From an uncultured bacterium (GTDB taxonomy: Bacteria; Omnitrophota; Omnitrophia; Omnitrophales; Aquincolibacteriaceae): a stretch of DNA of 64,000 nucleotides. Below the pieces are notes generated by a model. It did no database searches, had not been told where the DNA came from, and was given only the letters and a program-made list of their open reading frames with translations. The position numbers and the translations under genes were made by a program. Below are positions 1-19,749 of the stretch, in pieces. How positions within the stretch are numbered: the first letter of the stretch is position 1; the number at the start of each line of letters is the position of its first letter. The stretch spans positions 44,426 through 108,425 of the forward strand of contig CAYLPP010000007.1 of NCBI GenBank assembly GCA_964385615.1, read 5' to 3'.

Positions 1-890
1 GCGTCAAAAAATTCTTCAAGCGCGGCCACGGAAACCCCGCCCACAATGCCGAATATCAGCCCAAGCAATAAGTTTAGGAGCTTCTTGGGTTTCACGGGTT
101 TCAGAGGAATATGCGCCGGAGTTTGAATCCAAATATTGTTGGGCCTCAAACTTTCACGGCTAACTTGCGGACTTCCTTCTGAAGAGGAAACCAGGTCGGT
201 CCGTGAAGTATTTTGATCCCGAATCGCGATTGCAAGCTGTTCCATCTGCTCCCGCACACGAGCCCGAGCCGGAAACTTAGGCTTGTACCGCTTGGACAGC
301 TCCACTTCCTTAGACTGAAGGGACAAGTACTCATTCTTCATCAAATTCAGCGTTTCTGAACGCGTTGTCCGGGCCAGGTTTTCAGCGACAAAGACACGCG
401 CGATCTCATTAGCGAGAATCGCGGACATCTTGGGGCTCGGATCTTCAACCCGTAAAAGAACGAGGCGGGTCTGCTTCACGGGTTCAACGGACATAAGATC
501 CATCAAATTCTTAACCGGATCGTCACCCGAATTGTATTTTGGATCTTTCGCCAAATTAAGGTTTGAATAAACCAGTTCAGCGACCCGGCGGCTTTTGAGA
601 ACTTCCATCTGAGTCCTGTAATAATCCGCGTAAGTCATATAGCTGGTCTGCGCGACGGTCGCATCATCACGGCTGTTATAAATGGCCAGCAGTGTTGGAG
701 TTTCCATATCCACCGCGATTGAGACGGTTGCACGGTAAATCGGCTTTTGCAAAAATGTGCCGAAAGCCACCGCTAAAAAAATCAAAACAGCGACCGTAAT
801 GACACTTAACTTACGGCGCACGAGGAGCCGGTAAAAAGTCTGCAGCTCCTGCGAAAGGTCCAGGTTAACAGTAGGTGTAGGATTCGACAT
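1..890 (-). CDS. Polysaccharide co-polymerase / chain-length determinant (Wzz/GumC/PCP family); start ATG at 890, C-terminal part continues beyond window left edge
   Basis: Translated manually from ATG at 890 with no stop down to nt 1 (~296 aa in window). Motifs: MSNPTPTVNLDLSQELQTFYRLLVRRKLSVITVAVLIFLAVAFGTFLQKPIYRATVSIAVD (typical PCP N-terminal TM1 plus periplasmic domain), then a coiled-coil-like middle. A proline-rich segment TPAHIPLKPVKPKK is followed by a second TM helix LLNLLLGLIFGIVGGVSVAAL at the window edge, the hallmark arrangement of PCP proteins. Start lies 2 nt past the stop of the upstream Wza-like gene. Not in the ORF track because no stop is in the window. Confidence 0.7.
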   Translation of the reverse strand, partial: MSNPTPTVNLDLSQELQTFYRLLVRRKLSVITVAVLIFLAVAFGTFLQKPIYRATVSIAVDMETPTLLAIYNSRDDATVAQTSYMTYADYYRTQMEVLKSRRVAELVYSNLNLAKDPKYNSGDDPVKNLMDLMSVEPVKQTRLVLLRVEDPSPKMSAILANEIARVFVAENLARTTRSETLNLMKNEYLSLQSKEVELSKRYKPKFPARARVREQMEQLAIAIRDQNTSRTDLVSSSEGSPQVSRESLRPNNIWIQTPAHIPLKPVKPKKLLNLLLGLIFGIVGGVSVAALEEFFD

Positions 891-891
891 T

Positions 892-1518
892 TTATAACCA
901 GCTTTCCGGAACAAAAATGACATCGGCAGGCTGAACCTCGACGTCTTTGCTTTTGTTCCCTTTTTGAACGATATCCTTAGCGTTAACTTCAATCGTACGG
1001 GCACCGCCGGCTTCCGAGCGGATAATACGGACTTTATTAACCGCGGCGACTTTAGAAAACCCGCCGGCCATAGCAATGACTTCCATCATGGTTGTCGGCT
1101 TGCCGGGAGGAATTTGATAAGACCCCGGCTTATTGACAGCCCCCGTCACGGAAACCGTGCGGTTATGGTAAGACTGAATGTAAACCTGAACCTGCGGGTT
1201 GACCAGATAGTCGGCCTCAAGAAGACGGGTCAATTCCGACTGCAGTTTTGAAACACTCCATCCGCCGATGCTTAAACGCCCCAGTAGAGGAAAATCGATT
1301 TCCCCCTGAGAAGAAACCCGGACGGAAGTCGTTAATTCCGGTTCTTCATAAACGCTGATTTGAAGGACGTCATCCGGCTGAATCAGATAATCCGCGGACG
1401 GCGCCAAAACGCTGACGGCATCCATCGAAGAAGGAATCACAGGAACATCTTCAGCCGCAAGCAGCGGAAGGAACGCCATTAGCAGTAAAAACAAAATGGA
1501 AAACGTTTTCTTTTTCAT
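892..1518 (-). CDS. Wza-like polysaccharide export protein (short, ~208 aa, signal peptide)
   Basis: ORF track 892..1704. The likely true start is the internal MKKKTFSILFLLLMAFLPLLAAED signal peptide at 1518, which does not overlap the upstream gene whose stop is at 1526. The body resembles the poly_export/SLBB fold (…VSVTGAVNKPGSYQIPPGKPTTMMEVIAMAGGF…IIRSE…). Confidence 0.65.
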   Translation of the reverse strand: MKKKTFSILFLLLMAFLPLLAAEDVPVIPSSMDAVSVLAPSADYLIQPDDVLQISVYEEPELTTSVRVSSQGEIDFPLLGRLSIGGWSVSKLQSELTRLLEADYLVNPQVQVYIQSYHNRTVSVTGAVNKPGSYQIPPGKPTTMMEVIAMAGGFSKVAAVNKVRIIRSEAGGARTIEVNAKDIVQKGNKSKDVEVQPADVIFVPESWL

Positions 1519-1525
1519 ATTCACC

Positions 1526-2881
1526 TCAATAAGCCAGACTAATGTCAAAAATAAAACGGTTTTGATCATATTCGAAATCATTAAAGGTTGAAGACCGGTC
1601 GCGAAAGCGGTACCCGATACCCGTTGAAAGCCATTCCTTTGCCTGGTAGCGCAAATCAATTCCAGCGCCCCATAAATTGTCAGTACGCTCTCCCCGGACA
1701 CCATTCACAACCGCGGTTTGAGGATAGCGGTTATGCTGCCATGAAAAATGGGGCGTAAGGACCCACCGGCTGAAAAATCGCCGGCTGTAGCTGAGAACAA
1801 CACGGTCCGCTCCGTACCAAGAATTGTTCTGAAACGTAGACTGTTCCACGTCGCGCACGTAATCCACTTGAACCGCGTCACGGGGGCTGATTTTATAAGC
1901 AAGATTCGCGTCCACAACAAAACCATTATAATCCTGCTGTTCATCCTGGCCTGAAAACTCATCCAGACGGCGGGCTTGAAAACCGCCTTTAATTTCCGTG
2001 ACAAGATCTTCGGCGTATTCCCCTCGGATACCCGCCAGAATTTGCCAGAAAGCCTGGTCAGAATTCGCAACTTTGCGGTCGTAGTATGACAACCCCGCGT
2101 CATTTTGAATGATCAGGGATGTTTTCTCCCAGAAGCGGTAACCTAAAAGAACCGACATGATATCTTCTTCATAGTCATAGGGTTTGAGTCCCGGAGCGGA
2201 GTGCTCAACGGTATGATGCGTGTACCCGGGTTCGAAAATAAAACGGGCCCCTTTATATTTCGCGATAGCCTGCACGGAATTAGCGAGTAAATCATCACGG
2301 GTCGACGAAGCGTTCGTCTGGCGGGACTGCTCATTTTTAAAGGTATCTTCCAGAATCAACCGCCAATCATTGTTCGCGTAAAACTCCGCCAGTCCGTGAG
2401 CGAAGTGATTAATGGAGTTTTCTTCAGTCTGGTCGGCGAAATTGACGATTTCCATGCCGTATCCGCCTGAAATTCTAAACTTGTCATCTTTTTGAATTTC
2501 CGCGCTGAGAGCTGGAAGCTCACGGAAAATAACATCGGCTTCGCGGTCATGACGCGATAAACGGACGTTATCATCCACCTCAAATATCTGTGAAAACGCG
2601 GGATGGAGCCGCAAAATCCCAAGAGCGATTCCGGTCGCGGTATCCCCTTTGCGCACGCGAGGCAGGTTGGTGCGCCTGTCGAAATTCGTCATTCCAATCG
2701 GCGACTGCCCCCGGCGGAACTGCACGCTTTTATCATCATCATAATAATCCTCGAGGACTTTATCGTAAGTCCACCCGCGGGCGTCATCGCTGACGAACTC
2801 CGCCAGAAGACGGCCCGGCACAAGAAGCATGAATAAATAAAAGAGAGTTCCGGCAGTTTTAACTTTTGAAGTCATCATCAC
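1526..2881 (-). CDS. Outer-membrane beta-barrel protein of the EPS-locus-associated type (BBP2-like), with signal peptide
   Basis: 451 aa. N-terminal signal peptide MMMTSKVKTAGTLFYLFMLLVPGRLLAEF. Alternating amphipathic beta-strand pattern with many Y/W/F/R/D residues, and a C-terminal aromatic-ending strand …FIFDISLAY. Start overlaps the sulfotransferase stop (ATGA). Sits between the sulfotransferase and wza. Confidence 0.5.
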   Translation of the reverse strand: MMMTSKVKTAGTLFYLFMLLVPGRLLAEFVSDDARGWTYDKVLEDYYDDDKSVQFRRGQSPIGMTNFDRRTNLPRVRKGDTATGIALGILRLHPAFSQIFEVDDNVRLSRHDREADVIFRELPALSAEIQKDDKFRISGGYGMEIVNFADQTEENSINHFAHGLAEFYANNDWRLILEDTFKNEQSRQTNASSTRDDLLANSVQAIAKYKGARFIFEPGYTHHTVEHSAPGLKPYDYEEDIMSVLLGYRFWEKTSLIIQNDAGLSYYDRKVANSDQAFWQILAGIRGEYAEDLVTEIKGGFQARRLDEFSGQDEQQDYNGFVVDANLAYKISPRDAVQVDYVRDVEQSTFQNNSWYGADRVVLSYSRRFFSRWVLTPHFSWQHNRYPQTAVVNGVRGERTDNLWGAGIDLRYQAKEWLSTGIGYRFRDRSSTFNDFEYDQNRFIFDISLAY

Positions 2882-4581
2882 TTTTGCACTCCCGCGTGCT
2901 CCGGTAAATACCCAAACTGACGCAGGGAATCTCCGGAAAGTTGAACAATCAGGCTTTTCTGCTGATCCGTCAAACGCCTGATCTGGTTTTCATTAGAATC
3001 CATTCTGAAATGTTTTTGAAACTCATCAATTCCAAGCCAAACGACTTCTTTCCACTTCCGGTCGTCAACATTCTGGTGCGAACCGTCTTTATTCAGCACT
3101 TTTTTCACCTGCAGACGGACTTTGCCTTTCAAATCCGCAATATCAAGATCGGCAAGCTTGTAGATATGCTCCAACATTTCCTGCGGACGCTCCAGAATAT
3201 CTTCGTAACGGAGAATGTGATAGCGGGGAATCAAACGCGCGTCTTCTACCATGCGCTTAACCCCCATATCATAGTGACGCACAAAAGCCTCGAAATCGTA
3301 CCCGCGCCGAAGGTGCCCTTCAGCGACAGCAAAACCGTTGCGGATCAGACCAAAAAAAACGGCATCGGGGTATATCCGCGCGAGTTCCCTGGAAACAAAA
3401 ATCAAGCCGTCCAGGTTCTTACTCAGAAGCCTGGATTTACGGATATCATCATCCGTGCTTAGAACATTCTCGAATTTATAAAGGTTCTGAGTTTCATCGC
3501 GGGCACACAATTTCTCGTTATAAAAAATCCGGTCGATCCTATCCTGAGTGCTGGGACTGAAAGACTTGCGGTCGGTCCAGTCATTAAACCTGAAAATATC
3601 TGCCGCCTCCGTCAAAACAATCGGCAGATAGCGGAGATTTTTGGCGATCCTTGTCCAGATTGACTCATCCAGTTTTCCCTTAAAAACCTCATTCAATTCG
3701 CCTCTTGGAGAGCAAACCGAAGGATGAGACCTCAGCAGGTTTAGCAGGATATTAGACCCGCCATAAGCGAAAGCGGCGATGAAAATCGGTCTTTTATTGA
3801 GACGCTCGGTAGGGGCGGGCGCGGCACTGTGGGTTTTATAAAGCGCAAGTTCATGGTAAAGCGACATAACATCGCCGTCTTTCGGATAACATAGACGGTG
3901 AAGCTTCAGAATGATTTTAAAAAAAATACCTGAGACTTCCTTGCTTCGGTAAAGCTTATTATTACGGGAATCTTTCAGCGGAACGCCCATGAATTCCGAA
4001 AGACGCTGAATCATGTCCCCACCCGACATAAAATCCCGATACTGCGTGAAAAATACCGGCTGATTCGTAGTCTTTAGGATTTTCAGAATCTCAGCATTAT
4101 AGACATACCAGGCGTGAAGCGATTTCAACCCAAGTTTGATCTTGCGGATAATTTTCCACTTGCCCGGCTGATTATTGTAGTGAGACCAAAGTTCCGCGGG
4201 ATGACGGTAAATGGCTACGATCTTATGGTCAGGCAGTACTTTTCGCCAAAGATTGTAAGTCAGGCAGGTTCGAGGATCTTTAAATCCCCAATCTTTATTC
4301 AGCGCGCTCGTTTTCTCAACAAAACCGCGCAGCTTTCCCATTACCTCCGGATCCACAAGGGTATCTGATTCCATGACACGGTTGATATCAAGGCTATGCG
4401 CCTTGTAATCACAGCCGAGCACTTCAATATTCAGATCGTGGGTCTCAAGACGCTCAAACTTATTTCCCTGGTCATACCCCTTCGATTCATCAAAAGTGCC
4501 CATGGGAATATTTGATTCATGCAAAATCCGGGAAAGAAGCGTTGTGCCCGATTTATGCATACCCAACAAAATATAGATCAT
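2878..4581 (-). CDS. Tandem (two-domain) sulfotransferase family protein
   Basis: 567 aa. N-terminal domain begins MIYILLGMHKSGTTLLSRIL (PAPS 5'-phosphosulfate-binding K-S-G-T-T loop). The second half begins PIFIAAFAYGGSNILLNLLRSHP, a degenerate second 5'-PSB-like loop. Each half is about 270 aa, the size of one sulfotransferase fold. Confidence 0.6.
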   Translation of the reverse strand: MIYILLGMHKSGTTLLSRILHESNIPMGTFDESKGYDQGNKFERLETHDLNIEVLGCDYKAHSLDINRVMESDTLVDPEVMGKLRGFVEKTSALNKDWGFKDPRTCLTYNLWRKVLPDHKIVAIYRHPAELWSHYNNQPGKWKIIRKIKLGLKSLHAWYVYNAEILKILKTTNQPVFFTQYRDFMSGGDMIQRLSEFMGVPLKDSRNNKLYRSKEVSGIFFKIILKLHRLCYPKDGDVMSLYHELALYKTHSAAPAPTERLNKRPIFIAAFAYGGSNILLNLLRSHPSVCSPRGELNEVFKGKLDESIWTRIAKNLRYLPIVLTEAADIFRFNDWTDRKSFSPSTQDRIDRIFYNEKLCARDETQNLYKFENVLSTDDDIRKSRLLSKNLDGLIFVSRELARIYPDAVFFGLIRNGFAVAEGHLRRGYDFEAFVRHYDMGVKRMVEDARLIPRYHILRYEDILERPQEMLEHIYKLADLDIADLKGKVRLQVKKVLNKDGSHQNVDDRKWKEVVWLGIDEFQKHFRMDSNENQIRRLTDQQKSLIVQLSGDSLRQFGYLPEHAGVQK

Positions 4582-4835
4582 CGCGGATTTAAATGAAGGG
4601 TTCCAAGAGCCGACTTTTTAAGCGGCGTCGTCGAATACCCAAGACTCCTTATTATGGTTTTCCCGCAGTTATAGCTCCCCCAGCCCGCAGGATAATCGGA
4701 AGGCCTTTAAGATAGCTGATGGATGGCAGGCGGTCAAGTTATTCGGGAACTTTTTTTATTATCGGACTTTATTTTGTAAATGAGCGCCGTAAAAGAAGTT
4801 AAGGCTTTTTAATATAAACCGGAAAAACTTTCAAC
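4582..4835. promoter_or_regulatory. 254-bp AT-richer intergenic region: likely promoter/5' leader of the sulfotransferase–beta-barrel–wza–wzz operon (and 3' end of nnr)
   Basis: This is the largest non-coding gap in the window. It contains T-runs (ctttttttattatcggactttattttgtaaatg) and is visibly lower in GC than the flanking CDS. No specific promoter elements are called. Confidence 0.3.
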
Positions 4836-5483
4836 TTATAGCAGGAGCTGTCTTGGAAGTCCAATATCAACATTCACGATTTGCCCGGCCAAAATGGGGC
4901 CTGCACCCCTAAAAACGCCAATCTTAGGTGCCCCTAAAGAGGCCGTCACCACCGCCTTCACCGCATCGCCCAAAATCTCCCCTGTGTCACTTTGCAGTCC
5001 GGAAGGAATATCTACTGAAAGCACCGGAATCCCGGAAGTTTTCACGATGCTTATCCAGGACAAAACCTCTCCTTCAACTGGACGGCTGAGACCGGTGCCA
5101 AAGAGAGCATCAATAATCAAATCATGTTTCATAATATCGCTTAAGCACAGCGAAGAAAAGACGGGAACATTCAACTCCCTGAGCCTGGTAAAATTGGTAA
5201 GACTCTCCCCTTTCAGGGCGGAAGAATCCGCGAAAAGGCTGACGCGAACCCGCGATCCTAATTGAGTCAAATAACGGGCGCAGACAAAACCATCCCCCCC
5301 ATTATTTCCTTTTCCGCAAAGGACTAGAACCCGCGAAGGAGAGAATTTTTTCATAGCCAGCTCAGCCACACCCCGGCCGGCATTTTCCATCAGAGTAAGG
5401 GGAGAAATTGAAAAACGCTCAAACGCGAGACGTTCGAGCTCCCGCATCCGCTGGGCGGAAACGGGTTCAGGCAGGTTCGCCAA
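4836..5483 (-). CDS. NAD(P)H-hydrate epimerase (stand-alone YjeF-N domain)
   Basis: 215 aa; conserved YjeF-N motif VLVLCGKGNNGGDGFVCARYL. Start overlaps the miaB stop. Confidence 0.75.
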   Translation of the reverse strand: MANLPEPVSAQRMRELERLAFERFSISPLTLMENAGRGVAELAMKKFSPSRVLVLCGKGNNGGDGFVCARYLTQLGSRVRVSLFADSSALKGESLTNFTRLRELNVPVFSSLCLSDIMKHDLIIDALFGTGLSRPVEGEVLSWISIVKTSGIPVLSVDIPSGLQSDTGEILGDAVKAVVTASLGAPKIGVFRGAGPILAGQIVNVDIGLPRQLLL

Positions 5484-6891
5484 GAAAAGTTTCCCGGCGT
5501 AACTCCGTAAGCTTCAAACGGATGCTCCGGCCGATTTGGGAAGGCTCTCCTTTAAAGAGAACCGTTTTCTCCTGATTCAGGCGGGCTTTCATCTCTCCGG
5601 GATTTCGGGAACTTTCCGCGTCCACAAAAACCTCAAACGTGCGTCCAATCATCCGAAGATTATTTTCATCCCGAATTTTTTCTTGAATCTTTAAAAGTTC
5701 CGCCAAACGCGATTCCTTAACTTCGGAAGTCACATTATCTTTAAGTTTCGCGGCAGGAGTGCCGGGTCGGACCGAATACTTATAAACATAGGCGTCGTCA
5801 AACCGCAAACGCTCCATAGCTTTAACGGTCTCCCGGTAATCTTCTTCCGTCTCCCCCGAAAAGCCCACAATAATGTCCGTGGTCACGGAAATATCAGGAA
5901 TCAACTCGCGCATCCGGGCGATCTTCCCCGCGAACTCCTCAAAAGTGTGCAAACGCTTCATCCGCTTCAGCATCCGGTCTGAACCCGACTGAAGAGGCAG
6001 ATGAAACCGCCTGGAGATTTTCGGATTGCGGGCAATGACCTGAAAAAGTTCTTCCGTGGCATCATGCGGGTGTGAAGTGGTGAAAGAAATCTTTTCCAAC
6101 CCTTCGATACCGCAAAGACTCTCGAGAAGCTCAGCGAAATTAGAGCCTTTTCGGGCTTGCGCGCTTGGGCTTTGCGGTTCAAGTACGATTCGGGGAGCTT
6201 TCGCTGAAATCGCCTCCGAATCGTAACTGTTCACATTCTGCCCCAAAAGCGTAATCCACTTTACGCCCTCCTGAACCAGCCGGCTGGCTTCACGGTAAAC
6301 ATCCCGCGCGGGCATGGAAACTTCCTTCCCCCGGGTCGTGGGAACAATACAATAAGTGCAGGCTTTGTTACAGCCAGTCATAATCGGAAGCCACGCGTGA
6401 TGCTTGCCCCGGCGCCGGATTTGCTCCGAGTACTCGATTGAAATTCCTTCCTGGCGGATCCTGGAAACCTGCTCCCGGGACTCCAGTACTTGGTTCACAA
6501 GCGCCGGCAGTTCTTTGATATTGCGGGTTCCAACCATTAAATCGAGCGCGGGATATTTCTGGAAAAGTTTTTCACGGTGTTCTTCCACCATACAGCCCAT
6601 TAAACCAACTACCAGATTCGGATTTTTCTTCTTGGCGGCGGCAAGCATTGAAAGACGGCCAAAAACCCGCTCTTCCGCGTTTTCACGCACTGAGCAGGTA
6701 TTCATCAAAACAACATCCGCCCGGACTTCACCGCCGGCAGACGCCGGAAGCTTCATCTCTTCACCGTCCGGTTCATGAATCATTTCAAAACCGGCTTCAG
6801 ACAGGAATCCTTCCGCGACCTCCGTGTCATAGAGGTTCATCTGGCATCCGAAGGTTTTAATCGCGACTTTTAACTTTTTAGGGGAGTTCAT
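5467..6891 (-). CDS. miaB: tRNA-i6A37 methylthiotransferase MiaB (radical SAM MTTase)
   Basis: 474 aa. N-terminal MTTase motif KVAIKTFGCQMNLYDTE, radical-SAM CxxxCxxC box PIMTGCNKACTYCIVPTTRGKE, and a C-terminal TRAM-like region. Confidence 0.8.
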   Translation of the reverse strand: MNSPKKLKVAIKTFGCQMNLYDTEVAEGFLSEAGFEMIHEPDGEEMKLPASAGGEVRADVVLMNTCSVRENAEERVFGRLSMLAAAKKKNPNLVVGLMGCMVEEHREKLFQKYPALDLMVGTRNIKELPALVNQVLESREQVSRIRQEGISIEYSEQIRRRGKHHAWLPIMTGCNKACTYCIVPTTRGKEVSMPARDVYREASRLVQEGVKWITLLGQNVNSYDSEAISAKAPRIVLEPQSPSAQARKGSNFAELLESLCGIEGLEKISFTTSHPHDATEELFQVIARNPKISRRFHLPLQSGSDRMLKRMKRLHTFEEFAGKIARMRELIPDISVTTDIIVGFSGETEEDYRETVKAMERLRFDDAYVYKYSVRPGTPAAKLKDNVTSEVKESRLAELLKIQEKIRDENNLRMIGRTFEVFVDAESSRNPGEMKARLNQEKTVLFKGEPSQIGRSIRLKLTELRRETFLGEPA

Positions 6892-6935: not shown

Positions 6936-9900
6936 TCAGGCCGCTTTCCTCAGCCCCGGCAGGTATCCTTCCAGGACACGGATCAAGTCTTCCTTGCGCA
7001 CCGGTTTTGCCAGATAAGCGTCACAGCCCGCGGCAAAACATTCGTCCCGGTGTTCCTTCATAGCATCAGCAGTCAGGGCGACAATCACCCGGTGAAGCGG
7101 ACTCCCAGTCTCTTTAGAACGGATCAACCGCACGGCGGAATAGCCGTCCATTTCCGGCATCTGCATATCCATCAATACCAGACTGAAACTGGATTCGAGC
7201 ATTTTTTCAACGGCCTCATTTCCGTTCCGCGCCTCAGCAATTTCAACCGGGAGTTTTTTAAGAAAAGCCTGGATCAAAAGGCGGTTGTCTTCAGAATCAT
7301 CGGCCAGAAGAATTTTATAACTTCCGTTTAAATTTTGATTTTCCACGGGCGAAAACGCGGGTTTTGATTCGCCTGGAAAATCCTTCTCGGCACGCCTCTC
7401 TTCCCCGGGAAGCATCGGCAGCGTAAAAGAAAATACGGACCCCTGATGTTCATGGCTAGTCACGGCAATTTGCCCGCCCATTAACTCCACCAGACGCTTG
7501 CAGATGCTGAGGCCAAGCCCGGTGCCTCCATACTTGCGGGTCGTCGCGGAATCCGCCTGTGAAAAAGGTTTGAATAGTTTATGAAGTTTCCCAGCCGGGA
7601 TTCCAACTCCGGTATCTTCCACGGAAAACGTGACGGGAATTCTCCCGCTTCGATCGGCAGCTCCTGCCTCTAAAGAAACTTTGATTTCTCCTTTTTCCGT
7701 AAATTTCACGGCATTGTTGATCAAATTGATCAAAATCTGCTGAACCCGCGTGGAATCACCCATGACACGCTCGGGTAAATTAGGGCGGATATCGGCATGA
7801 AGGTTTATGCGCTTTTTAGCCGTTCTCTCCGTGAACATTTCAACTGTGCGCGACACCAGGTCTTGAAGCCTAAAAGGAAGACTTTCAATTTCCATGGATC
7901 CGGCTTCGATTTTTGACAAATCCAGAATATCGTTAATCAAATTCATCAAAGCGTCTCCGCCCGTCCTCAGTTTGGAAATATATTCACGCTGAGTTTCATC
8001 CAAATCCGTTTCGCCAAGCAGTTCGGCCATTCCTAAAATAATATTCATGGGAGTCCGGATTTCGTGGCTCATCGTCGCTAAAAATTCTGACTTCAACCTT
8101 GAAGCTTCCAAAGCTTCATCACGGGAACGCTGAAGGTTGATCTGAATCTGACGCTGAGCCGTCATATCGCGCGCCGTAACGGAAGCGCCTAAGAGATTCC
8201 CCTTTGAATCATGCAGCGGTGAAATCGTTAATGAAACGGGAACTTGAGTCCCGTCTTTACGCAAGCGCACCGACTCATATTGCTGAATGGAGATATCGTT
8301 TCGGATCCGGCGCATTAACTCCTCGAATTCGGCCTCCCGTCCCTCAGGGATCAAAATCGAAACCTTCTGTCCGATAATTTCATCCGCAGTATAGCCGAAG
8401 AGCTTTTCCGATCCATGGTTCCAACTCTGGATAATCCCATCCAAATCTTTACTAAAAATGGCATCCTCGGAAGACTCCACAATTGCCGCGAGTTTCGCAG
8501 TACTCTCTTCCGCCTTTTTGCGTTCTGTTAAATCCGCGGCAACTCCCAGGTACCCAGTGATTTGATTTTGACTGCCTCGAATAACCGTGACGACAAGGTT
8601 GACCGGAATTTTTGAACCGTCTTTACGCACATACGTCCATTCATGCTCATCAAATCCCTTTTGGCGGGCCTCCGCGATAAAAGTTTCAAAGCCCTGAACG
8701 GTACGGCCATACTTCACGGAAAGTTCCCGGCTGTAAGCCTCGACCTCGGAAGCCAAGTGAAATTTTGAAGGCGTCTCGATCCCGATCATTTCACGCCTGC
8801 TATACCCCAGCATTTTTTCAGCACCGGTATTGAAGAACGTAATCAGACCCTCAGGGTTTGTAGAAATCACTGAAACCTGATGCGCCGCCTGGAGCACGCT
8901 CTCCAAATCTCTCTGCGCTAAGAGAGCTTTTTCTTTCTCGCTCTTCAATTCCCCGGAAGATTCGATCAATCTTGAAACCAGCCCGGAAGCAACGATTGCC
9001 CCCAGCATCAAAAGAATCAGAAAAATCCAGAGTCCCGTTTCCTGGTGCTCCTTCATGTACCGCTCAGACGGAACCATCACGAGCGCGTAATTCCGCTCCC
9101 CGACATCAAAATAAAGCTTCTTATAAAATCCGCTGCTCTCAAGTTCGCGAACACGTTCCGCTCGGGGAAAATTAGAACTGTCAAACAGGCTCACTCCCGT
9201 CCCCTCCGAATTAGTCACGTCCAAAATCTGGAACGCGTAATAATTCAGGCTATCTCCATCAAAAACGCTTTGCAGAAAAAACGCCATTTGAATTTCCGCG
9301 GCAACATACCCCATAGGTGAAGCTCCGGGACCGGATGTATTCGTTCCTCCCTGATTGTTAAAGACCGGATAAACAAGAAGCAAAGACCACCGGTTTGATG
9401 AAAGAACGTCGGATCGGCGGACCCGTTCAGTGGCCACAATCGAGTCTTTCTTTGCCGATAATTTCAAAGCTTTTAAAACGAGCGGGTCTTCACCTCGGTC
9501 TATACCCATAAGATTCAAATTCGCGGATTGCGGTTCCACAAAAGTCACCGGATAATAAAATCCGGAATTCCCTCCCGCGTTTCCATCTGAAAACCTGATC
9601 TTGAATCCTGGGAAATTATCCGCCTCAGCAGACTGCTCAAAGATTTCTTTATTCTCCGCAGGAACTGCCGAAATCCATTCTAGATTCCGGAAGCTTTTCC
9701 CGCCGGCCAGAAGCATCTTTGTGAAGGATCGAAACTCCTCACGCTCTATCGATTTTGACCCTTCGTAAAAAGCCCTCAGCGACTTCAGGACAAGCACCGT
9801 TTGATTAAATTCACGCTTTAAAGCCGCCATTTTCTCGTGCGCGGTCGCGTTGAATTCCATCCCGGATTTTCTATATTGAACCTGACTCAGGATTTGAAGA

Positions 9901-10604
9901 ACCAAAAATGAAAGAACCACACCGATAAAAAAGACAAAAATGGCGCTCGGAAGGCTCTTTTTGTGCCGTTGAACCGCGGCCAGGAGCCCGGTACCGATTA
10001 ATAAAAAAGCGGCGGAAGTATGCAGAGCCATCCGCGTCAGAGATCCCCAGCCGTAAGTCGCTTCCGAATGGAAAAAATATCCGAGCATCGCGGCGCCGGC
10101 ATTGGCAATAATCAGTAAAGCGAGGTAATGAATGATCCCGTATTTAAAACCGCTCTTCCAAACACGGTCTGAACAAAGCGCCATTCCCGCCAGCAAGAAG
10201 CAAAGCGCGGTATTTGGCGCCGGGCGCCCCGCGTGGGAGGTTTTCGTCAATACATAAGCCTTCATGAAGAACTCATCAATTCCAAAATTGGAATTGAATA
10301 GATACTCAAGCAAAACTGCCAATGCCAGAGCCATCACCGAACTTCCAAAAATAAAAGCGAGAGAGGCGCGCTGAAAACTTAATGAAGCTAACCCTAAACC
10401 GATAAAAACCAATCCTAATGCGGTATTGAACTGCATGGGAGCAAATCCTGGAAAGACCTGAATCAGCACGGTATTATGAGTCAGCCATCCAAAAATCACT
10501 AAAACACCCAGGAAAGTAATCAGGAAAGATAAGAAGAGGGCCGTCCAAACTCCTCTGCCCCACGAACCAGAATCAAGCCGCGCGGTCATAAATAACCTCG
10601 ACAC
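6936..10604 (-). CDS. Hybrid sensor histidine kinase: multi-TM N-terminus, CHASE-like sensor, PAS domains, HisKA, HATPase, C-terminal receiver
   Basis: 1222 aa. About 7 hydrophobic helices at the N-terminus; an extracytoplasmic CHASE-like block; PAS-like repeats. H-box [12 protein letters not shown], HATPase G-boxes ([16 protein letters not shown]), and a C-terminal REC ([13 protein letters not shown]…[12 protein letters not shown]). Confidence 0.85.
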
Positions 10605-10902
10605 GGCTTAGATAATCCGATAAAGCCTTACGCGTAGATTCCACTTCAGAAGCACGTCGGTCCCGAGCGCTTTGTTCAAGCCTTAATCCGATCCGGCTTA
10701 GCTCCTCAAAGCCGTACCCCGCGCCGGCACCTTTGAGTTGATGCCCTAGGGTCTGGATCTTGCTAAATTCTTCCGCTTCCAGCCACTGCGCGATTAACGG
10801 GACCTCGTTTTTTCGTTTTTCAAGAAAAGACGGAATAAGATCCGCGAGGTCCTTGTCCGCTTTAACCAGAATTTTTCCCCCTCGAAGTTCTTCGTTCATC
10901 AC
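10573..10902 (-). CDS. Stand-alone Hpt (histidine phosphotransfer) protein
   Basis: 109 aa. CheA-P1/Hpt-type phospho-His motif GHQLKGAGAGYGF. Start overlaps the RR stop (ATGA); the 3' end overlaps the HK start, consistent with translational coupling. Confidence 0.6.
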   Translation of the reverse strand: MMNEELRGGKILVKADKDLADLIPSFLEKRKNEVPLIAQWLEAEEFSKIQTLGHQLKGAGAGYGFEELSRIGLRLEQSARDRRASEVESTRKALSDYLSRVEVIYDRAA

Positions 10903-11507
10903 GCGGCCTTTTTTATCATTTCGCTCAGACGGGCTTCAAAACGCCTGATAAAATCAATGAGTTGAGAATCCTTATAATCTTTTTCAAAGCAAGTATCCGC
11001 CCCCGCCGCCAGCATTCGCTCCACAGTCTCGCGCCCATACGCGGTCATTCCGATAATGGCAGTCGATTTAAATTTAGGATTAGACCGGATTTTCCGGCAA
11101 ATCTCTTCCCCGCTGATCCCCGGAAGACGCACATCCAGAAAAATAATATGAGGATTAAATTCATCGATTAAAAAACCAGCTGAGAAACCATCTCCGGCTT
11201 CGCGAATCTGAGATTGAGGGAAATGGCGCTGAAGTGTTACAAGCAGGATTTGACGCAGGTCAAAATCATCTTCCACGATCAGGATTTTTAAAAACGGGGC
11301 GGACGGCGCTGAGCTTTCTGTAAGTTCCGCGGATACCGGCATTCCCATTTTTTCCAACGCGAGTTTCAAATCTGAAACCGCGACACGGCTGTGCCCGCCC
11401 ATAGTCGCTGAAGCCTTAATCAGGCCGTCACGGATCCACCGCAAAATCGTTCCTCTGGAAACCTGGCAAATAACAGCCGCCTCTGAGGTCGTTAGGTAGT
11501 TTTTCAT
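10899..11507 (-). CDS. Response regulator with N-terminal excisionase/MerR-type HTH and C-terminal receiver domain
   Basis: 202 aa. N-terminus LTTSEAAVICQVSRGTILRWIRDGLIKA… (HTH_17-like). Receiver KILIVEDDFDLRQ…IIFLDVRLPGISGEEI…GMTAYG with conserved Asp. Confidence 0.7.
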   Translation of the reverse strand: MKNYLTTSEAAVICQVSRGTILRWIRDGLIKASATMGGHSRVAVSDLKLALEKMGMPVSAELTESSAPSAPFLKILIVEDDFDLRQILLVTLQRHFPQSQIREAGDGFSAGFLIDEFNPHIIFLDVRLPGISGEEICRKIRSNPKFKSTAIIGMTAYGRETVERMLAAGADTCFEKDYKDSQLIDFIRRFEARLSEMIKKAA

Positions 11508-11635: not shown

Positions 11636-14600
11636 TTAAGCGGACTGAGCCGCGCGGATTTCGGAGCGGTATTCTGTCGTCAGTTTTTTGACCAGATTCA
11701 GGAAGATAGCCAGATGTTTTTCGTCAAGAACCACGATCCGGCTTCCGTCCTGACGCACTTCAGGAAGCTGATTAACAAGACTGGTCGCCAGAAAACGAAC
11801 CATAAGAGGAAGGAATTGCGATTCCCCAACCACATTCACAAAATTTTCCTGAGCCTGAACAACGGTGTCCCCTTGTTCCCCGCCATTCTTAACGGCCAAG
11901 CGGGTTCCAACCAGAGTTTTCCGCGCATCGGGAGAAAAATTAACTTTAGACAATCGGTTTAAATCCACAGGCTGATCATTACGTGAACCTAAAGTAGCAA
12001 AAATCATCCGCATCAGCCCCGGAAGTTCTTTCGCGAAACCCATGGTTGTCTTTTCGCCCGGAGTCCCCACCGCGTAAGCTACCGCAATCGGATGCTCAGC
12101 CTCAAGGAGAACCTTCATGTAGTCCTCGTTGGCAAATGAAGCGTCAAGAACGTAACTGGTTTTACTATCCGGAGTAGCGCTCGCGAATAAATTCGCGGGC
12201 ATTTGAACGCCGTCAATCACAAGAGTACCTTTATTGGCCGTAAGAAGAGCCTGGTAACGGGTTTCAAGCTCCTTCTGATCAAGCGCGATAAATTGGGTCT
12301 GAGCTTCGGAATCGATCTGGATATTCTGCGCGGCCTGAGCCTGCTGAAGATTATAGCCAAGAATCACAGAGTTAATCACATACCGCTGAAGCTGGGCGGA
12401 AAATTTCTCCTGAAGACTTGAAGCAAAAGCCTGGCGAACTTGTTCATCGCTAAAAACCTGTTCCGCGAATGCGGATGTTAACCGGCCGATTTCCGCTTCA
12501 AATTCAGGGCTTAAAATAACCGCCGAAAGATTCTGCCCTTTTTCAACAGCCGTCCGAAGATAAGCAGAAATTCCATTTCGAATCTGTTCCTGCGCGGGTT
12601 TAATAACCGAGTCACGGCGCTGGGCTGAAATCGCGTCAAAAACCTGGCTGATTTGATTAAGGTCAGCATCACCGGAGAATTGACTCAACACCTGATTCGC
12701 GATATCCGCGATGGGGGCCAACGCGTCAATTCCCGTCGGCTGTTGAGCTGTTTCAAGAGGCGCAGTCACCGCGGCTTCCCTTTCCTGCGCCGTCGTCACA
12801 CTGATAACCGGAGCGACCGCGATAGGGGCTTCGGCAAGACGGACTTCAGACCGCGCGGGATACGCGGCGTTAAGTTTATCCAGATACTGCTGGCTTCTAT
12901 CTTTAAGATTGTTCTCTCCTAAAAATCCTGCCGGCGCGGAAGTTTCGATCCGCGCGTAAACCCGAACCGCTTCCTCGAAAAGTTTACGCGCTAAATCAAT
13001 AGTCGAAGCACTGCGTCCGGAAAGAACCGGCTTCAGATTATTTCCGTCACGCTCCACACCCGGTTGATTATTCAGAACCATCTGACTCGCCCAATCATAC
13101 AATTGATCCGCGATTTTCAGCTGAGCGTCCCAAGTGCCGGCCAAATTACTGTTGGGAGAAGTCAAACTTTGGAGAACAGGTTCTAAAGAACCCGCCGCGG
13201 TCCGGTTGAGCGATGGATTGTCCGATAGCGTAACCAGCCCTCCGGCAACATTTAAAACGGAATCTAAATTTAAAATCCCTACATCCCCGGTATTCCCAAC
13301 GCTGATCAGAGGAGCCGTAACCCGTTTCGCGGGCATTTGCAGCGGATCACTCGGCGTTATAGTGCGGACCACACCTTTAAACAGCTGATCACGCACCGAA
13401 ATCACAGGGGCGTATTGAGTCCCCACTTTAGCCAGGTACTGCTCACTGCGGGCCTGCAAATTATTATCGCCCAGGAAACCCGGTGAAATCGAGTTAATAA
13501 TCCCATAAGCCTGGACCGCGTTTGAAAAAAGGGTAAGCCCTAAATTTAGAATTTCGGATGGAAGATTTGGCTGAACCGCTTTCAGCCCGGAAGAATCGCG
13601 CGGAGCGTTATCATTAAGGAGCAGTGAGCCGGCTAAATCGTAAAGTCCATCCGCGGCTTTTAAAATGGCGGGCAATCCGCCGGCATAAGAACTGTTCGCG
13701 TCCAAAAGATCACTCACGATCACCGAAATATAACCTAAAGCCGAGCTCCTCACTTTCGCCACCCTTGCGGCATCGCCTTCAATATTGCCGGATTCCGCCG
13801 CGCGGGCAATAACAGCAAAATCCTTGAGCGCGAGAAGAATGACGTCAACATCTCCTATTTGAGTGGGAGCGCGCAAAGTCTTGGTGCCCGTTTTTCTAAC
13901 CGCGTGGTCGCGGGATGGATCAATCTGGCCAATCACCCCGCCATAAGAATTTTTTTCATAAACACGTTTAACGGCACTCGAAAGGAGTGATTCGGCGTTT
14001 TGAATTGAAACGCGTGTCTCTGAACGCGCGGCAACCGCGGTCAAATCCGCGCGAGTCTGAATGTTCTCTTGAGATTCAGGCTCGATTCTGATTTCCGCGC
14101 GGGCAGAGGCGGGATAGGCCGTTCGAATGGCAGCCGCGTATCCTTTAGCCTTTTCGAAAGCGCCGTAACCGGGCTGTCCCCGCTGCAGTTCAGCTCCGAG
14201 AGTAAAATCAAGACGGGCGATCTGATCAAAAAGATCCAAGGCAAAATCAACTCGATCCGCGGGTAGATTCGCCAAAACAACCCGGTTTTGATTCGCGTCG
14301 CGCGCTGTCGCGTCAAACATAAGCCGCAGAGCAAGATTATAGGAAGCCAGCACCGCTATTCCCTGACGCGGTACATTCGCAGGGTCCGTTAAAAGAAGTT
14401 CTTGAACTCCGCCAAAAAGATTCGTAAACGCATTACGCACCTGCGCCAACAGAGCGTCGGGAGAAAACCCGCGGGCCCGCAAATTTTCAAGCGCGACAAT
14501 CTGATTGATTAAATCGATGGATAAAATTCTTATTTCATCTGCTGAGAGAGCGCTGTATGAACCTCTCGCTCTACCGGCCTCAAGTGCCGTAAGGCGAGGA

Positions 14601-17600
14601 AGAATCCGCTGAAACCCATCATGAGCCGTAAGGAATTCTGCCGGAATAGCCAGAAAATCTCCCGCGGCATCTTCTCTTCCCGTTCTCACTTCAGACCGAG
14701 CAGCAGCCGCGGCGGCTGTATCCGACAGCTGAACAACGGAGATTTGTTTAACTTTCGCGCGCTTAAGCTCATTAAGAATCCGGGCAACATCCTTAATCAC
14801 CGCGAATCCGCGTTTATCTTTTTTAGGGTAATAAACCCGGCCATTCGCAACGATCGCGACTGTCTTTTTAAGCTCAGCCTCACTCTTCTTACTCATTGCC
14901 GGCAATTTAACATCCGTTTCATTCTCGACAACAGCGTTTAAGGCATTCAGCCTGATCTTCCCCCAGAGCACATACGTGACCCAGTCATCAAATGTAATAC
15001 CCGTTCCTTTTAATACCCCCCAACGAAGAACAGCGGCTGAGACCCCGATACCCGTCAAAAATGCCCCCAGCAAAACTAGAGCTGGTTTCAACAGAACGGT
15101 GGCACCCAACAAGCCAATAACCGTCAGGGTCAAACCCACCGCTAAAAGCACTAGTGAAAACAGCGAAACATATTTCACTAACACCGCGTAACCTGTATCC
15201 AGACTTTCCATGTAATCGTTCGCCGCCCGCAAAGAAACTCGGGCAAGCTTACGGTAAGTCGTTTCTTTCGCCGCTAAATCCTTCAATTGACGCGTGTCTC
15301 TCAGGATCGTTCCCTTCTGATCGGCTTTAAGATCAAGCGTGGTTTTCTCCGCGGACTCCAGCACACTCTTACGGAACGGAAGAGTCGCGAAGAACAGTTC
15401 AGAAAATGAATAAGGTGAATCCCCTTTGCGGAATTCAAAAACAATCATCATCGCCGGAACAGGCAAAAGAACCGCGGCGATAAGCAGTGCGACCGGAAAA
15501 ACCAGAGTCCAACCAAATAAAAACGCAGCGGCCAGATAAAGCGCGGAAAGCGCGAGAATCGCCAATGAAAGCCCCCGGGCGATCCAAACACCGGTTTTCT
15601 CATCCAGCTCAGTAAGATTCGCAAGGGTCGTTTTCTTTACCAGAGCGTCTTCCGCTTCGCTGGTTTCGTGATCCAGAATATGCCGGCCCCGATTCGCGAG
15701 TGCCCGTCCATTCACTCCGCCAAACTCGTCAGCGTCGCGGGTGTCCCGGCTAAAGCGGGCAGCGTCGGCGTTCGCTTTCGCGCGGTTAGTCTTTATCATG
15801 TCCTGGAGATAATTCGCCCAAATACCAAGTTTTGTTAATTTTTCAACATCCTCCGCATGCGAAGCCGGTAAATCGGCCCGATCAACCCCGGCGGCAGCTC
15901 TTTGAAGATGATGCCGCAGCGCTTCAACCGCGAACTGAAGACGCTCAACCCGGTCAAGCGTAATCTGGAGCGACCACTGAGCGTCATTCACATCCATCCC
16001 TTCACCATCCGCTCCGTAATCAATAAAAATATCCTGAACGTCGCTTTTCAGAGTTTCGTAATGAGTGGTCAGCACCGCCATAAGCGCGTCAAAGTTTCCA
16101 TTTTTTATGGCAGTATAAATTTCAAGCGGAGAAATCGGCTTTACGCTGGTTTTGGTTTTCTTGGTACGGGCTTCGGCGATCGCGGCTTTATTAGCCGCCG
16201 CCTGTTTCTCTTTAGCTTTAAGCGCCTTAATCAGGGCTTGGGTCGCGGCAGCAACATCACGGTCCCTTCCTTCACTTTCATTGGGAAACCTTGTGTCCGG
16301 TGAGGAAAAAGCCGGAAAAACGCCTTCCTGATAGGATTGAGCCGTGAAATGATCGTTCCCATATCCGGTACCGTCAACGCCGTCTAATTCTTCGGGAGTA
16401 TAAACCATTCCATCAACTTGAACGGGCGGCGCCGGCGCCGGCTCCCCAAACCCCGCTGATGAACGGGTTAATTCCCGATGGCGGAGGCGAAGCGCGTCAG
16501 TATTCATGGGCCTTGAAACCCCCGCGCGTATAATTTTCCGGGCTTGCGGATCTTGAAATAAAAGTTTGGCTTTTTCCGATCTTGAGCTCGTATCTCCAAT
16601 CGCCTTAGCGGCCTCAGTGACCAAGGTCAATAACTCAACCTGAAGATCATCCAGTTTGTCTTCGATACGCCCCAATTCTTTTTCCAGAGCTTTCTGCGAC
16701 TTTGGATTCGTAAAAAGGGCCGTGAGGTGCTCTTCCAGCGGAATCCGCTCCGGTCTGCCTTTCACGGGGATCCACGCGATCTTTCGATACTCCGGTGAAA
16801 CGTCGAGCAAATTATTATAAATCCCGAGAATTCTGCGGAGCTTGGATTTTAACGGCAAAGGGGTCGATTTCGCATCGAGCAACTCCTGAAGTTTTTGCTG
16901 AATCGCGTTCCCTTTAGGTTTCGCGGGCGCTTTTTTAGGAACTTTCGTCCCTCCGGCAGCGCTGGTTCCGCTCAATGGCGGAGGAGCGCCTCGAAAAGGA
17001 GGGGGCAAAACAGGTTCCGGCAGGTCCGGTAAATCGGACGGTGTGTCTCCCATTGAGCTTCCAACCGGCGTTTCCGCTCCGGTTAAATCCGGTTCAATAA
17101 CCGGCGCGGCTGTTAATTTCGCGGCACCTGTTTTAATTTTAGAAATAGCTGCTTTTAATTTTTTCGCTACGTCCGCAAAATGGTTGATTTTCCCAGTATC
17201 GGTTTTCCTACTAGCCCATCCCGAAATCACTTCATCCTCTTTAACATCAACAGCCCTAATGTTTGATAAATACTCGATATTCCCCTGAATCGCAGTCAAA
17301 GCGCCTATAAATCCAGACAGCGTTCCTTGGGTATTTAGACTATCTAAGGTTAATGCTGCGGGATCTATTTTTGAGAACTCGCGGTTCCCTTTTCCCAAAA
17401 TCCGGTCAAGAAAATTTGTAATAACAGCACTTGGCCCCCGAACAGCAACCACATCGCTGTTGTTCTTCGTTTTATCACCTGTCGTATACGCTTTTAGCAG
17501 TTTTTCGAGCGCGATAATCTCAACCATCACCTCACGGATGGCCATATCCCCGGCAACGATATCAAGACCCGGACGGGGAGCCGTGATCGCCCGGACTTCA

Positions 17601-19591: not shown

Positions 19592-19749
19592 AGAATCGCC
19601 GTCCACAGCCCTTTATTAAAGGCTTTTATAAAGGTGACTCTAGAAGTATAGCACCCTCTATAGGAATTTTCTAATGACAGGTAGGGCTGTGGAAGGAATG
19701 CTAGTTCTTACTAGAGAATGCTACTTTCCCCTAGGGAGCAATACCAGGC
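19592..19749. promoter_or_regulatory. Palindrome-rich, AT-richer spacer between the two giant genes (candidate promoter/RNA structure)
   Basis: An 11-bp perfect inverted repeat, tccacagccct (19602-19612) / agggctgtgga (19683-19693). Smaller palindromes tatag-N6-ctata (19647-19663), ctagt-N4-actag (19701-19714) and ccctaggg (19729-19736). On the coding strand, TAGAAA-N17-TATACT precedes the RBS region. No U-tract after the giant-gene stop. Confidence 0.3.

Follow-up and report, generated by a model that had tools for sequence, protein, structure and literature searches.

To our knowledge, sulfated polysaccharides are rare in bacteria, and few of the systems that make them have been characterised, among them those of synechan and of some marine capsules. 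Polymers of this kind are sought as heparin-like and antiviral biomaterials. Some marine bacteria and Pontiella are documented to have sulfated capsules and exopolysaccharides (EPS). The synechan of Synechocystis sp. PCC 6803 was experimentally found to be sulfated, with two sulfates per eight-sugar repeat, and its xss gene cluster is of the Wzx/Wzy type and encodes the two sulfotransferases (STs) XssA and XssE (PMC8205485); synechan was also the subject of heterologous expression in Synechococcus (PMC13125312). In Myxococcus xanthus, EpsY and EpsX form a composite translocon made of a D1D2-type outer-membrane polysaccharide export (OPX) protein and a beta-barrel (PMC9601211). Here we describe a gene encoding two ST domains in one polypeptide, which lies in an EPS operon of an uncultured bacterium of the Omnitrophota (Aquincolibacteriaceae; assembly GCA_964385615.1, contig CAYLPP010000007.1, positions 44,426 to 108,425). 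This whole stretch of 64,000 nucleotides is referred to as the window; positions are counted from its first letter, and the features described in it lie on the minus strand. With a probability of about 0.6, the protein is considered to be a cytoplasmic fusion of two STs of the type that uses 3'-phosphoadenosine 5'-phosphosulfate (PAPS), sulfating the repeat unit that a Wzx/Wzy EPS operon exports, and the cell probably makes a sulfated slime (exopolysaccharide).

Two sulfotransferase domains in one polypeptide

The fused gene (2878..4581) is a single open reading frame (ORF) of 567 amino acids (aa) with an ATG start, and its product begins with MIYILLGMHKSGTT in the ORF list. Its identification is based on Pfam, a structure model and a fold search. 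The Pfam family Sulfotransfer_3 (PF13469) matched the whole protein in two stretches (E=3.9e-21), and each half was recognised when scanned alone, the N-terminal half with 39.8 bits (E=7.9e-10) and the C-terminal half with 35.1 bits (E=2.1e-8). Since both scores lie above the gathering cut-off of 27 bits, the match is not due to chance. An earlier note, made from the sequence of the window, had proposed two ST domains in one protein, to be checked on each half separately; both halves bear this out, the second through Pfam as well as through the similarity of its family profile to TPST1. The protein consists of an N-type ST domain (residues 1-250; 3832..4581), recognised by Pfam and AlphaFold2 (AF2) on the domain alone and by Foldseek, an inter-domain linker HSAAPAPTERLN (residues 251-262; 3796..3831; block pLDDT 56), and a C-type, TPST-like ST domain (residues 263-567; 2881..3795), recognised by Pfam on the domain alone and by comparison of the family profile with the PDB. 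It has no transmembrane segment or signal peptide, the maximum Kyte-Doolittle hydropathy over 19 residues being 1.48.

The AF2 model of the fused ST was built from a 33-sequence alignment and reached a mean pLDDT of 90.8 and a pTM of 0.61, with low confidence at residues ~251-260; the pTM value therefore points to domains that are well folded and whose mutual orientation is uncertain. When this model was compared with the PDB by Foldseek, the top 45 matches were all STs, including TPST2, TPST1, Stf1, the CurM ST, the olefin-synthase (OLS) ST and the heparan sulfate (HS) 3-O-STs. TPST2 and TPST1 were the best matches of the full-length model, with target TM-scores of 0.60-0.62, the aligned half being inferred from the C-family profile, which matched TPST1 in the PDB with E=6.2e-6 and also CurM/OLS ST and TPST2. 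The N domain modelled alone (pLDDT 88.4, pTM 0.88) was most similar to CurM ST, OLS ST, TPST2, Stf9 and Stf0. Single-sequence phmmer searches of each half against the PDB returned chance matches only (retron HNH, BbvCI) and were uninformative, so that profiles were needed. NCBIfam contains no model for either half, and in the databases searched the members of the N-type and C-type families are all without a functional name.

The architecture proved to be rare. A search of 5.8 billion proteins with the fused ST gave full-length matches to five sequences only, namely the query and four orthologues of 60-70% identity, all from different assemblies. About 18 stand-alone C-type proteins (311-342 aa) and about 17 N-type proteins matched one half, some of the latter being fused to a GT92, GT1, nucleotide-diphospho-sugar transferase or Wzx flippase domain. 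When 1.84 billion cluster representatives were scanned exhaustively with HMMER, 243 matched at E<=1e-30 and 4,139 at E<=0.001. Among the best 150 of the 243, one representative (P0002, the closest to the query) spans both halves, and the remaining matches are single-domain proteins of the N-type (~240-260 aa) or the C-type (~300 aa). The fusion was found in one 50%-identity cluster among the 1.84 billion representatives, and in a limited literature search no report of an ST-ST fusion from bacteria came up.

No significant similarity connects the two halves (BLASTP E=0.13; hhalign profile-profile probability 2.5%), and the protein is therefore a fusion of two distantly related families, not a tandem duplication. 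The earlier note had regarded a tandem ST as unusual; the architecture is indeed rare, but it is not a duplicated domain, and the two distinct families recur as a pair of genes. N and C are separate genes in the closest genome relative (locus L001, the same as L004), where they overlap by 7 nt (ATGTTAA). The split falls at the position of the linker, the genes that follow are the same (barrel, OPX, polysaccharide co-polymerase (PCP) with bacterial tyrosine kinase (BY-kinase), Wzy and Wzx-glycosyltransferase), and in a neighbour-joining (NJ) tree this relative nests inside the fused group. In another locus (L041), 1 nt separates the end of the N-type gene from the C-type gene, and the cluster also encodes WecG, Bac_transf and a Pel9A-like beta-helix protein; in L040 the two are divergent neighbours. 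Seven Chloroflexota loci and one Cyclobacteriaceae locus also have both ST types in one cluster; in the Chloroflexota loci the two genes are one gene apart, this being the Wzy gene in L029 (order Bac_transf-GT4-Wzz-Ntype-Wzy-Ctype-Wzx-GT4-GT4). The linker of the fused orthologues is 10-15 residues long and variable in sequence. The N/C pair is a recurring module of Wzx/Wzy polysaccharide clusters and became a single polypeptide in one narrow clade. Because the pair is separate elsewhere and fused here, the N and C proteins work together according to the Rosetta-stone argument.

Active sites of the N and C domains

The features that define the ST fold are a Lys/Arg in the 5'-phosphosulfate-binding (PSB) loop, an Arg and a Ser in the 3'-phosphate-binding (3'-PB) motif, and a His or Glu base (PMC11625862). 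The PSB loop of the N domain, GMHKSGTT (residues 7-14; 4540..4563), contains the catalytic-type Lys10 and aligns with the P-loops of Stf9 and SULT1A (KSGTT). All its residues from G7 to T14, Lys10 included, are invariant in a 13-sequence N-type alignment, in agreement with the earlier reading of this loop as canonical. In the same alignment R126 is invariant; it lies in the 3'-PB strand-turn-helix YRHPAELWSHY (residues 125-135; 4177..4209), which is aligned to 'HRDPYKATGS' of Stf9 and to the 3'-PB region of SULT1A3. Set against the 3'-PB pattern RxxxDxxxS, the Arg is present, position +4 is Glu, and position +8 is the conserved His134, not Ser. E43/R44 and WGFKDPRT (98-105) are likewise invariant. 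Glu43 is located at the start of the helix that follows the PSB helix, topologically like the Glu of TPST and HS-ST, and Thr105 occupies the position of the His in 'KMPSH' of Stf9, which makes Glu43 the likelier candidate for the catalytic base of the N domain. Based on these alignments, the active site of the N domain appears canonical (Lys10 loop, Arg126), and both elements that the earlier note had considered decisive for the first half, a 3'-PB motif and a base, have counterparts in R126 of YRHP and in the invariant acidic candidate E43.

The PSB loop of the C domain is a variant, AYGGSN (residues 272-277; 3751..3768), with Tyr273 at the position of the Arg typical of the family and with the Gly-Gly-Ser backbone part retained. 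Among 75 non-redundant C-type members, the loop residue is R in 56, Y in 16, H in two and F in one. The family Arg is aligned to that of the P-loop in TPST1 ('GVPRSGTT'); Tyr273 thus replaces a loop Arg whose normal role is to stabilise the transition state. The second loop had been described as degenerate; AYGGSN is real and non-canonical, and is better regarded as a clade-specific Arg-to-Tyr change in an otherwise strongly conserved family. The candidate base of the C domain is in Gly294-Glu295 (3697..3702), which is invariant in the C-type alignment A2 (G37, E38), is kept in nearly all of 36 genome loci, and is aligned to 'GEE' of TPST1; the Glu of this TPST motif is reported to be the catalytic base in TPST2. 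The 3'-PB region LIRNGFAVAEGHLRRG (residues 412-427; 3301..3348; R414, G422, R425, R426) aligns with 'VRDGRASVHSMISR' of TPST1, R414 corresponding to the 3'-PB Arg, and R157, G159, E164, G165, R168, R169 and G170 of this region are invariant in A2.

C-type members with a non-basic loop retain every other invariant residue, and the Tyr variants keep Glu295, K388, R414 and R425/R426 without exception. An unbootstrapped NJ tree splits the non-basic variants into three or more groups, namely the query clade, a Nitrospirota/Thermodesulfovibrionales clade and P0048, and they may thus have arisen at least three times, that is, in about three independent lineages. Protein identity among the fused orthologues, used per domain as the measure of conservation because at 60-70% identity synonymous sites are saturated, is 69-74% for the C domain and 53-72% for the N domain, and the C domain appears to be under strong selection. 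Because the TPST-like Glu295 and the 3'-phosphate Arg414 are kept, the C domain most likely still binds PAPS or PAP.

Export operon, proposed function and rival explanations

The fused ST is probably the first gene of a Wzx/Wzy-type EPS operon. Its stop codon overlaps the start of the next gene in AAGTGATGATGA (AAG-TGA-TGA-TGA), by 4 nt if the start is GTG and by 1 nt if it is ATG. This next gene encodes an outer-membrane beta-barrel of 451 aa (1526..2881), identified by Pfam BBP2_2 (46.9 bits) and the junction sequence, with sub-threshold NCBIfam matches to the PEP-CTERM-associated OMP/EpsL. The ATG of the OPX gene, at 1515, follows about 10 nt after the barrel stop; the gene encodes a short protein of 207 aa from MKKKTF (892..1515) with the Pfam domains Poly_export and SLBB only, and in NCBIfam it comes closest to models of short exporters (pepcterm_export, EpsE and EpsY), each with a score below cut-off. 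One nt after the OPX stop, at 890, is the ATG of a PCP gene, the 5' part of which (1..890; Pfam Wzz 34.4 bits, GNVR 28.2 bits) runs off the left edge of the window. The PCP orthologues in L001 and L002 are 590-602 aa long and have a C-terminal BY-kinase-type ATPase. The translational coupling noted earlier for this locus is confirmed by the overlap and by the short gaps in front of OPX and PCP. The beta-barrel and the PCP were also correctly recognised, and the supposed Wza-like exporter is refined to a short D1D2-type OPX that needs an adjacent barrel (PMC9601211).

Upstream of the fused gene lies a non-coding spacer of 254 nt (4582..4835), the only sizeable gap in the row of genes and probably the operon start; a promoter scan of this spacer gave one weak sigma-70-like match (4737-4709), no more than shuffles give, and no convincing match above them. 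Since the window ends inside the PCP gene, a fused orthologue on a Logan contig (L002) was taken as the syntenic proxy for the genes beyond it. Upstream of its ST, L002 shares the MiaB and YjeF_N genes with the window, so that the order MiaB-YjeF_N-ST is conserved, and downstream it encodes the barrel, OPX, PCP/BY-kinase, Wzy, Wzx, two GT4 proteins and a WecG-type glycosyltransferase. The order ST-barrel-OPX-PCP is common to L001, L002 and L005. Of the components of a Wzx/Wzy pathway with a composite OPX/barrel translocon, the barrel, OPX and PCP are thus in the window, and Wzy, Wzx and the glycosyltransferases come from L002/L001 only.

PAPS is a cytoplasmic metabolite. Because of this, and because the fused ST lacks a signal peptide and transmembrane segments, action as a soluble protein in the cytoplasm is proposed. 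By analogy with the Wzx/Wzy scheme and with synechan (PMC8205485), the fused ST would act at the inner membrane face that looks into the cytoplasm and sulfate the repeat unit while it is linked to undecaprenyl diphosphate. The sulfated unit would then be flipped by Wzx and polymerised by Wzy under the control of PCP/BY-kinase, and the polymer would be exported via the short OPX and the beta-barrel translocon. As a working view, the two domains would share one repeat unit as substrate and would probably sulfate it at two positions, and the fusion would fix a 1:1 stoichiometry and the proximity of the two domains.

Several observations weigh against this proposal. Neither the window nor L001/L002 contains genes for PAPS synthesis (sat/cysDN, cysC); the window is fully filled by other genes, two giant ORFs taking up ~52 kb, and therefore leaves no room for PAPS-synthesis or glycosyltransferase genes. 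Donor and acceptor are suggested by family-level homology and context, no member of either family having been characterised. In L040 (7030-8997), the N/C pair stands among genes for alcohol and aldehyde dehydrogenases, a thiamine-pyrophosphate (TPP) enzyme, a fatty-acid desaturase and a methyltransferase, a context that hints at a non-glycan acceptor in some lineages. As judged from its pTM of 0.61, the model does not predict the packing of the two domains with confidence. The C domain lacks a Lys/Arg at the PSB position to which catalysis is ascribed (PMC11625862), and the comparison of the 75 members revealed no compensating basic column shared by the non-basic-loop variants. The position of the 3'-PB Ser is an invariant Gly across the whole C-type family (Gly422), although the invariant R425/R426 that follow could substitute for the Ser.

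These residues lead to a rival explanation, which is given less than half the weight of the main proposal and in which the C domain is a pseudo-sulfotransferase, the obligate non-catalytic partner of the N domain, so that each repeat unit would receive one sulfate. It would bind PAPS/PAP or the glycan and would serve substrate positioning, allostery or stabilisation. Tyr273 at the residue described as catalytic (PMC11625862) and the missing compensation speak for it, as does the physical association implied by the fusion and the overlapping genes. Moreover, most sampled non-basic C-type genes have an intact-loop ST fused, adjacent or within ~2 kb: those of the query clade are paired with N-type genes, that of L003 with a different RSGTT-type ST, and further cases are the Nitrospirota loci L025, L027 and L030; the genes without such a neighbour are that of L023 and a second copy in L027. 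However, a second ST is also encoded close to about half of the Arg-loop members, so that the association is suggestive and not established, and it comes from only about three independent lineages. The unbroken retention of Glu295, K388, R414 and R425/R426 in the Tyr variants and the conservation of the C domain, which is at least that of the N domain, also argue against it, since dead enzymes usually relax such positions. The generalisation that all Tyr/His/Phe-loop C-types are recurrently evolved pseudo-STs, dedicated non-catalytic subunits of canonical polysaccharide STs that have lost sulfate transfer and keep PAPS/PAP and glycan binding, is a little more doubtful still. If it is true, the fusion would be Rosetta-stone evidence for the complex of the two, and this would be the first enzyme/pseudoenzyme pair described for bacterial glycan sulfation.

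An acceptor other than the exported polysaccharide (a glycolipid, the lipopolysaccharide core, a small metabolite or protein tyrosines), with an incidental position beside the export genes, is improbable. The closest solved relatives of the C domain are protein-tyrosine STs, and the pair in L040 is outside polysaccharide genes; yet the TPST similarity is weak (13-18% identity) and common also to polyketide and glycolipid STs. The overlap of the ST stop with the barrel start and the order ST-barrel-OPX-PCP kept in L001, L002 and L005 tie the fused gene to export, the ST types of Chloroflexi sit between Wzz, Wzy and Wzx genes and those of Nitrospirota among GT4-like genes, and N-type domains are fused to glycosyltransferase and flippase domains elsewhere. 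Hardly any weight is given to the possibility that the fusion is an artefact of a frameshift or an assembly merge, or a simple tandem duplication. The two overlapping genes of L001/L004, nested in the fused group of the NJ tree, might be taken in its favour. Five independent sequences from different assemblies, 60-100% identical, are nevertheless all uninterrupted and have the 10-15 residue linker. As four of these are orthologues from assemblies other than that of the window, the fusion is not an assembly artefact, and frameshift or assembly error was rejected. Duplication of one ST gene was rejected as well, on the lack of significant similarity between the halves and the large stand-alone family that each of them has. 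Sulfation of the exported repeat unit by the fused ST remains the preferred reading.

Further observations were made in the clusters of relatives. In a Thermodesulfovibrionales metagenome-assembled genome (L023), where a Tyr-loop C-type ST stands among GT4-like genes, an adenosine-5'-phosphosulfate (APS) kinase gene (10344-10871; PF01583, 75.8 bits) is the sole PAPS-pathway gene seen among the clusters examined. On a JGI metagenome contig (L003, 2873-4816), a His-loop C-type ST is paired with a different canonical ST, and a sulfatase (PF00884) is encoded two genes downstream, so that sulfate-adding and sulfate-removing enzymes share one neighbourhood; an unannotated ORF of 990 aa is nearby. 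In L041, an ORF of 995 aa without a Pfam match (2223-5210) comes right after the N/C ST pair of the EPS cluster. In Chloroflexi clusters with both ST types, the Wzz-type PCP carries a fused diguanylate-cyclase domain (GGDEF; L029, 6622-7746), so that chain-length control is tied directly to c-di-GMP synthesis, which is unusual.

In the window itself, the spacer is followed by genes for a stand-alone YjeF_N protein of the NAD(P)HX epimerase type (215 aa; 4836-5483; Pfam) and for a MiaB-like radical-SAM methylthiotransferase (5467-6891), the end of which is overlapped by the YjeF_N gene by 17 nt. A phosphorelay (6936-11507) lies between the EPS operon and the giant genes and comprises a CHASE-PAS-HisKA-HATPase-REC hybrid kinase of 1,222 aa, an Hpt protein of 109 aa and a response regulator with an N-terminal HTH_17, in reading frames that overlap or abut; it could regulate the EPS operon or the giant genes. 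The larger giant ORF (19750-63987) is uninterrupted, encodes 14,745 aa and has no tandem DNA repeats. Pfam recognised nothing above threshold in the 5,000 aa at either end of it, a PDZ match at aa ~250 being sub-threshold. Genes of this size were reported mainly from Omnitrophota (bioRxiv 10.1101/2023.11.21.568195). It includes an extremely hydrophobic stretch of ~900 residues rich in Ala/Val/Gly/Ile (40501-43500), which coincides with an AT-skew spike of 0.27 at 40-44 kb and looks like dozens of consecutive transmembrane helices. Directly downstream of this giant ORF, a second very large one of 2,656 aa (11636-19606) has no Pfam match at E<=0.001 and shows, by eye, hydrophobic segments and Pro/Ala-rich linkers. 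All credible genes of the 64 kb are on the minus strand, and the GC skew is negative in every 2-kb bin, with a monotonic cumulative fall to -2.67, which fits a single replichore with strongly co-oriented genes.

Significance and comparison with known systems

New here are the covalent ST-ST fusion, the widespread N-type/C-type gene pair and the finding that C-type STs have repeatedly lost the PSB Arg. Fold, chemistry and export machinery belong to known kinds, and two STs of different subfamilies in one Wzx/Wzy cluster are known from synechan (PMC8205485). The locus and its relatives define two uncharacterised ST families that occur together in Wzx/Wzy clusters across many uncultured phyla, which suggests that bacterial glycan sulfation is much wider than the cultured record. 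The fusion is direct genetic evidence that two such enzymes work jointly, and with the Arg-to-Tyr loop variants it can be tested cleanly whether the 'catalytic' PSB residue is indispensable. The locus does not change a paradigm; it is a useful lead for enzymology and for the mining of tool enzymes for sulfation.

Synechan, likened to this locus by gene content, also has two STs of distinct subfamilies in a Wzx/Wzy EPS cluster with PCP and OPX genes, and there too the repeat unit was proposed to be modified at the cytoplasmic face while linked to its lipid. The xss STs, however, are separate and non-adjacent, whereas the two STs of this locus are fused and one of them is without the PSB basic residue; the host of synechan is a cyanobacterium and the present host an uncultured diderm. 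The tyrosylprotein sulfotransferases TPST1 and TPST2 (PDB 5wri, 3ap1) are the best profile and fold matches of the C domain, and their strand-loop-helix PSB, the Glu that follows the loop helix and the 3'-PB Arg align with it. They differ in having only 13-18% identity to it, in the PSB Arg, which is Tyr here, in the PB Ser, which is Gly family-wide, and in modifying proteins of the secretory pathway, in contrast to the glycan biosynthesis context of this locus.

The ST domains of CurM and the olefin synthase (PDB 4gbm, 4gox) and the mycobacterial Stf0 and Stf9 are the best fold matches of the N domain and set a precedent for bacterial ST domains fused to other biosynthetic domains. Their TM-scores are only ~0.5, they use acyl-ACP or trehalose/glycolipids as substrates, and not one of them carries a second ST domain. 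The EpsY/EpsX system resembles the present one in that a 207-aa OPX with Poly_export and SLBB is encoded beside the genes of a ~450-aa outer-membrane beta-barrel and a PCP; the NCBIfam scores for EpsY, EpsE and EpsL are below the curated cut-offs, and the pair, with its putative interaction of OPX and barrel, is a distant analogue, not an orthologue. The heparan sulfate enzyme NDST (8ccy among the fold matches) likewise carries out two successive glycan modifications in one polypeptide; it combines a deacetylase with one ST in the eukaryotic Golgi, and its architecture is not homologous to that of the fused ST.

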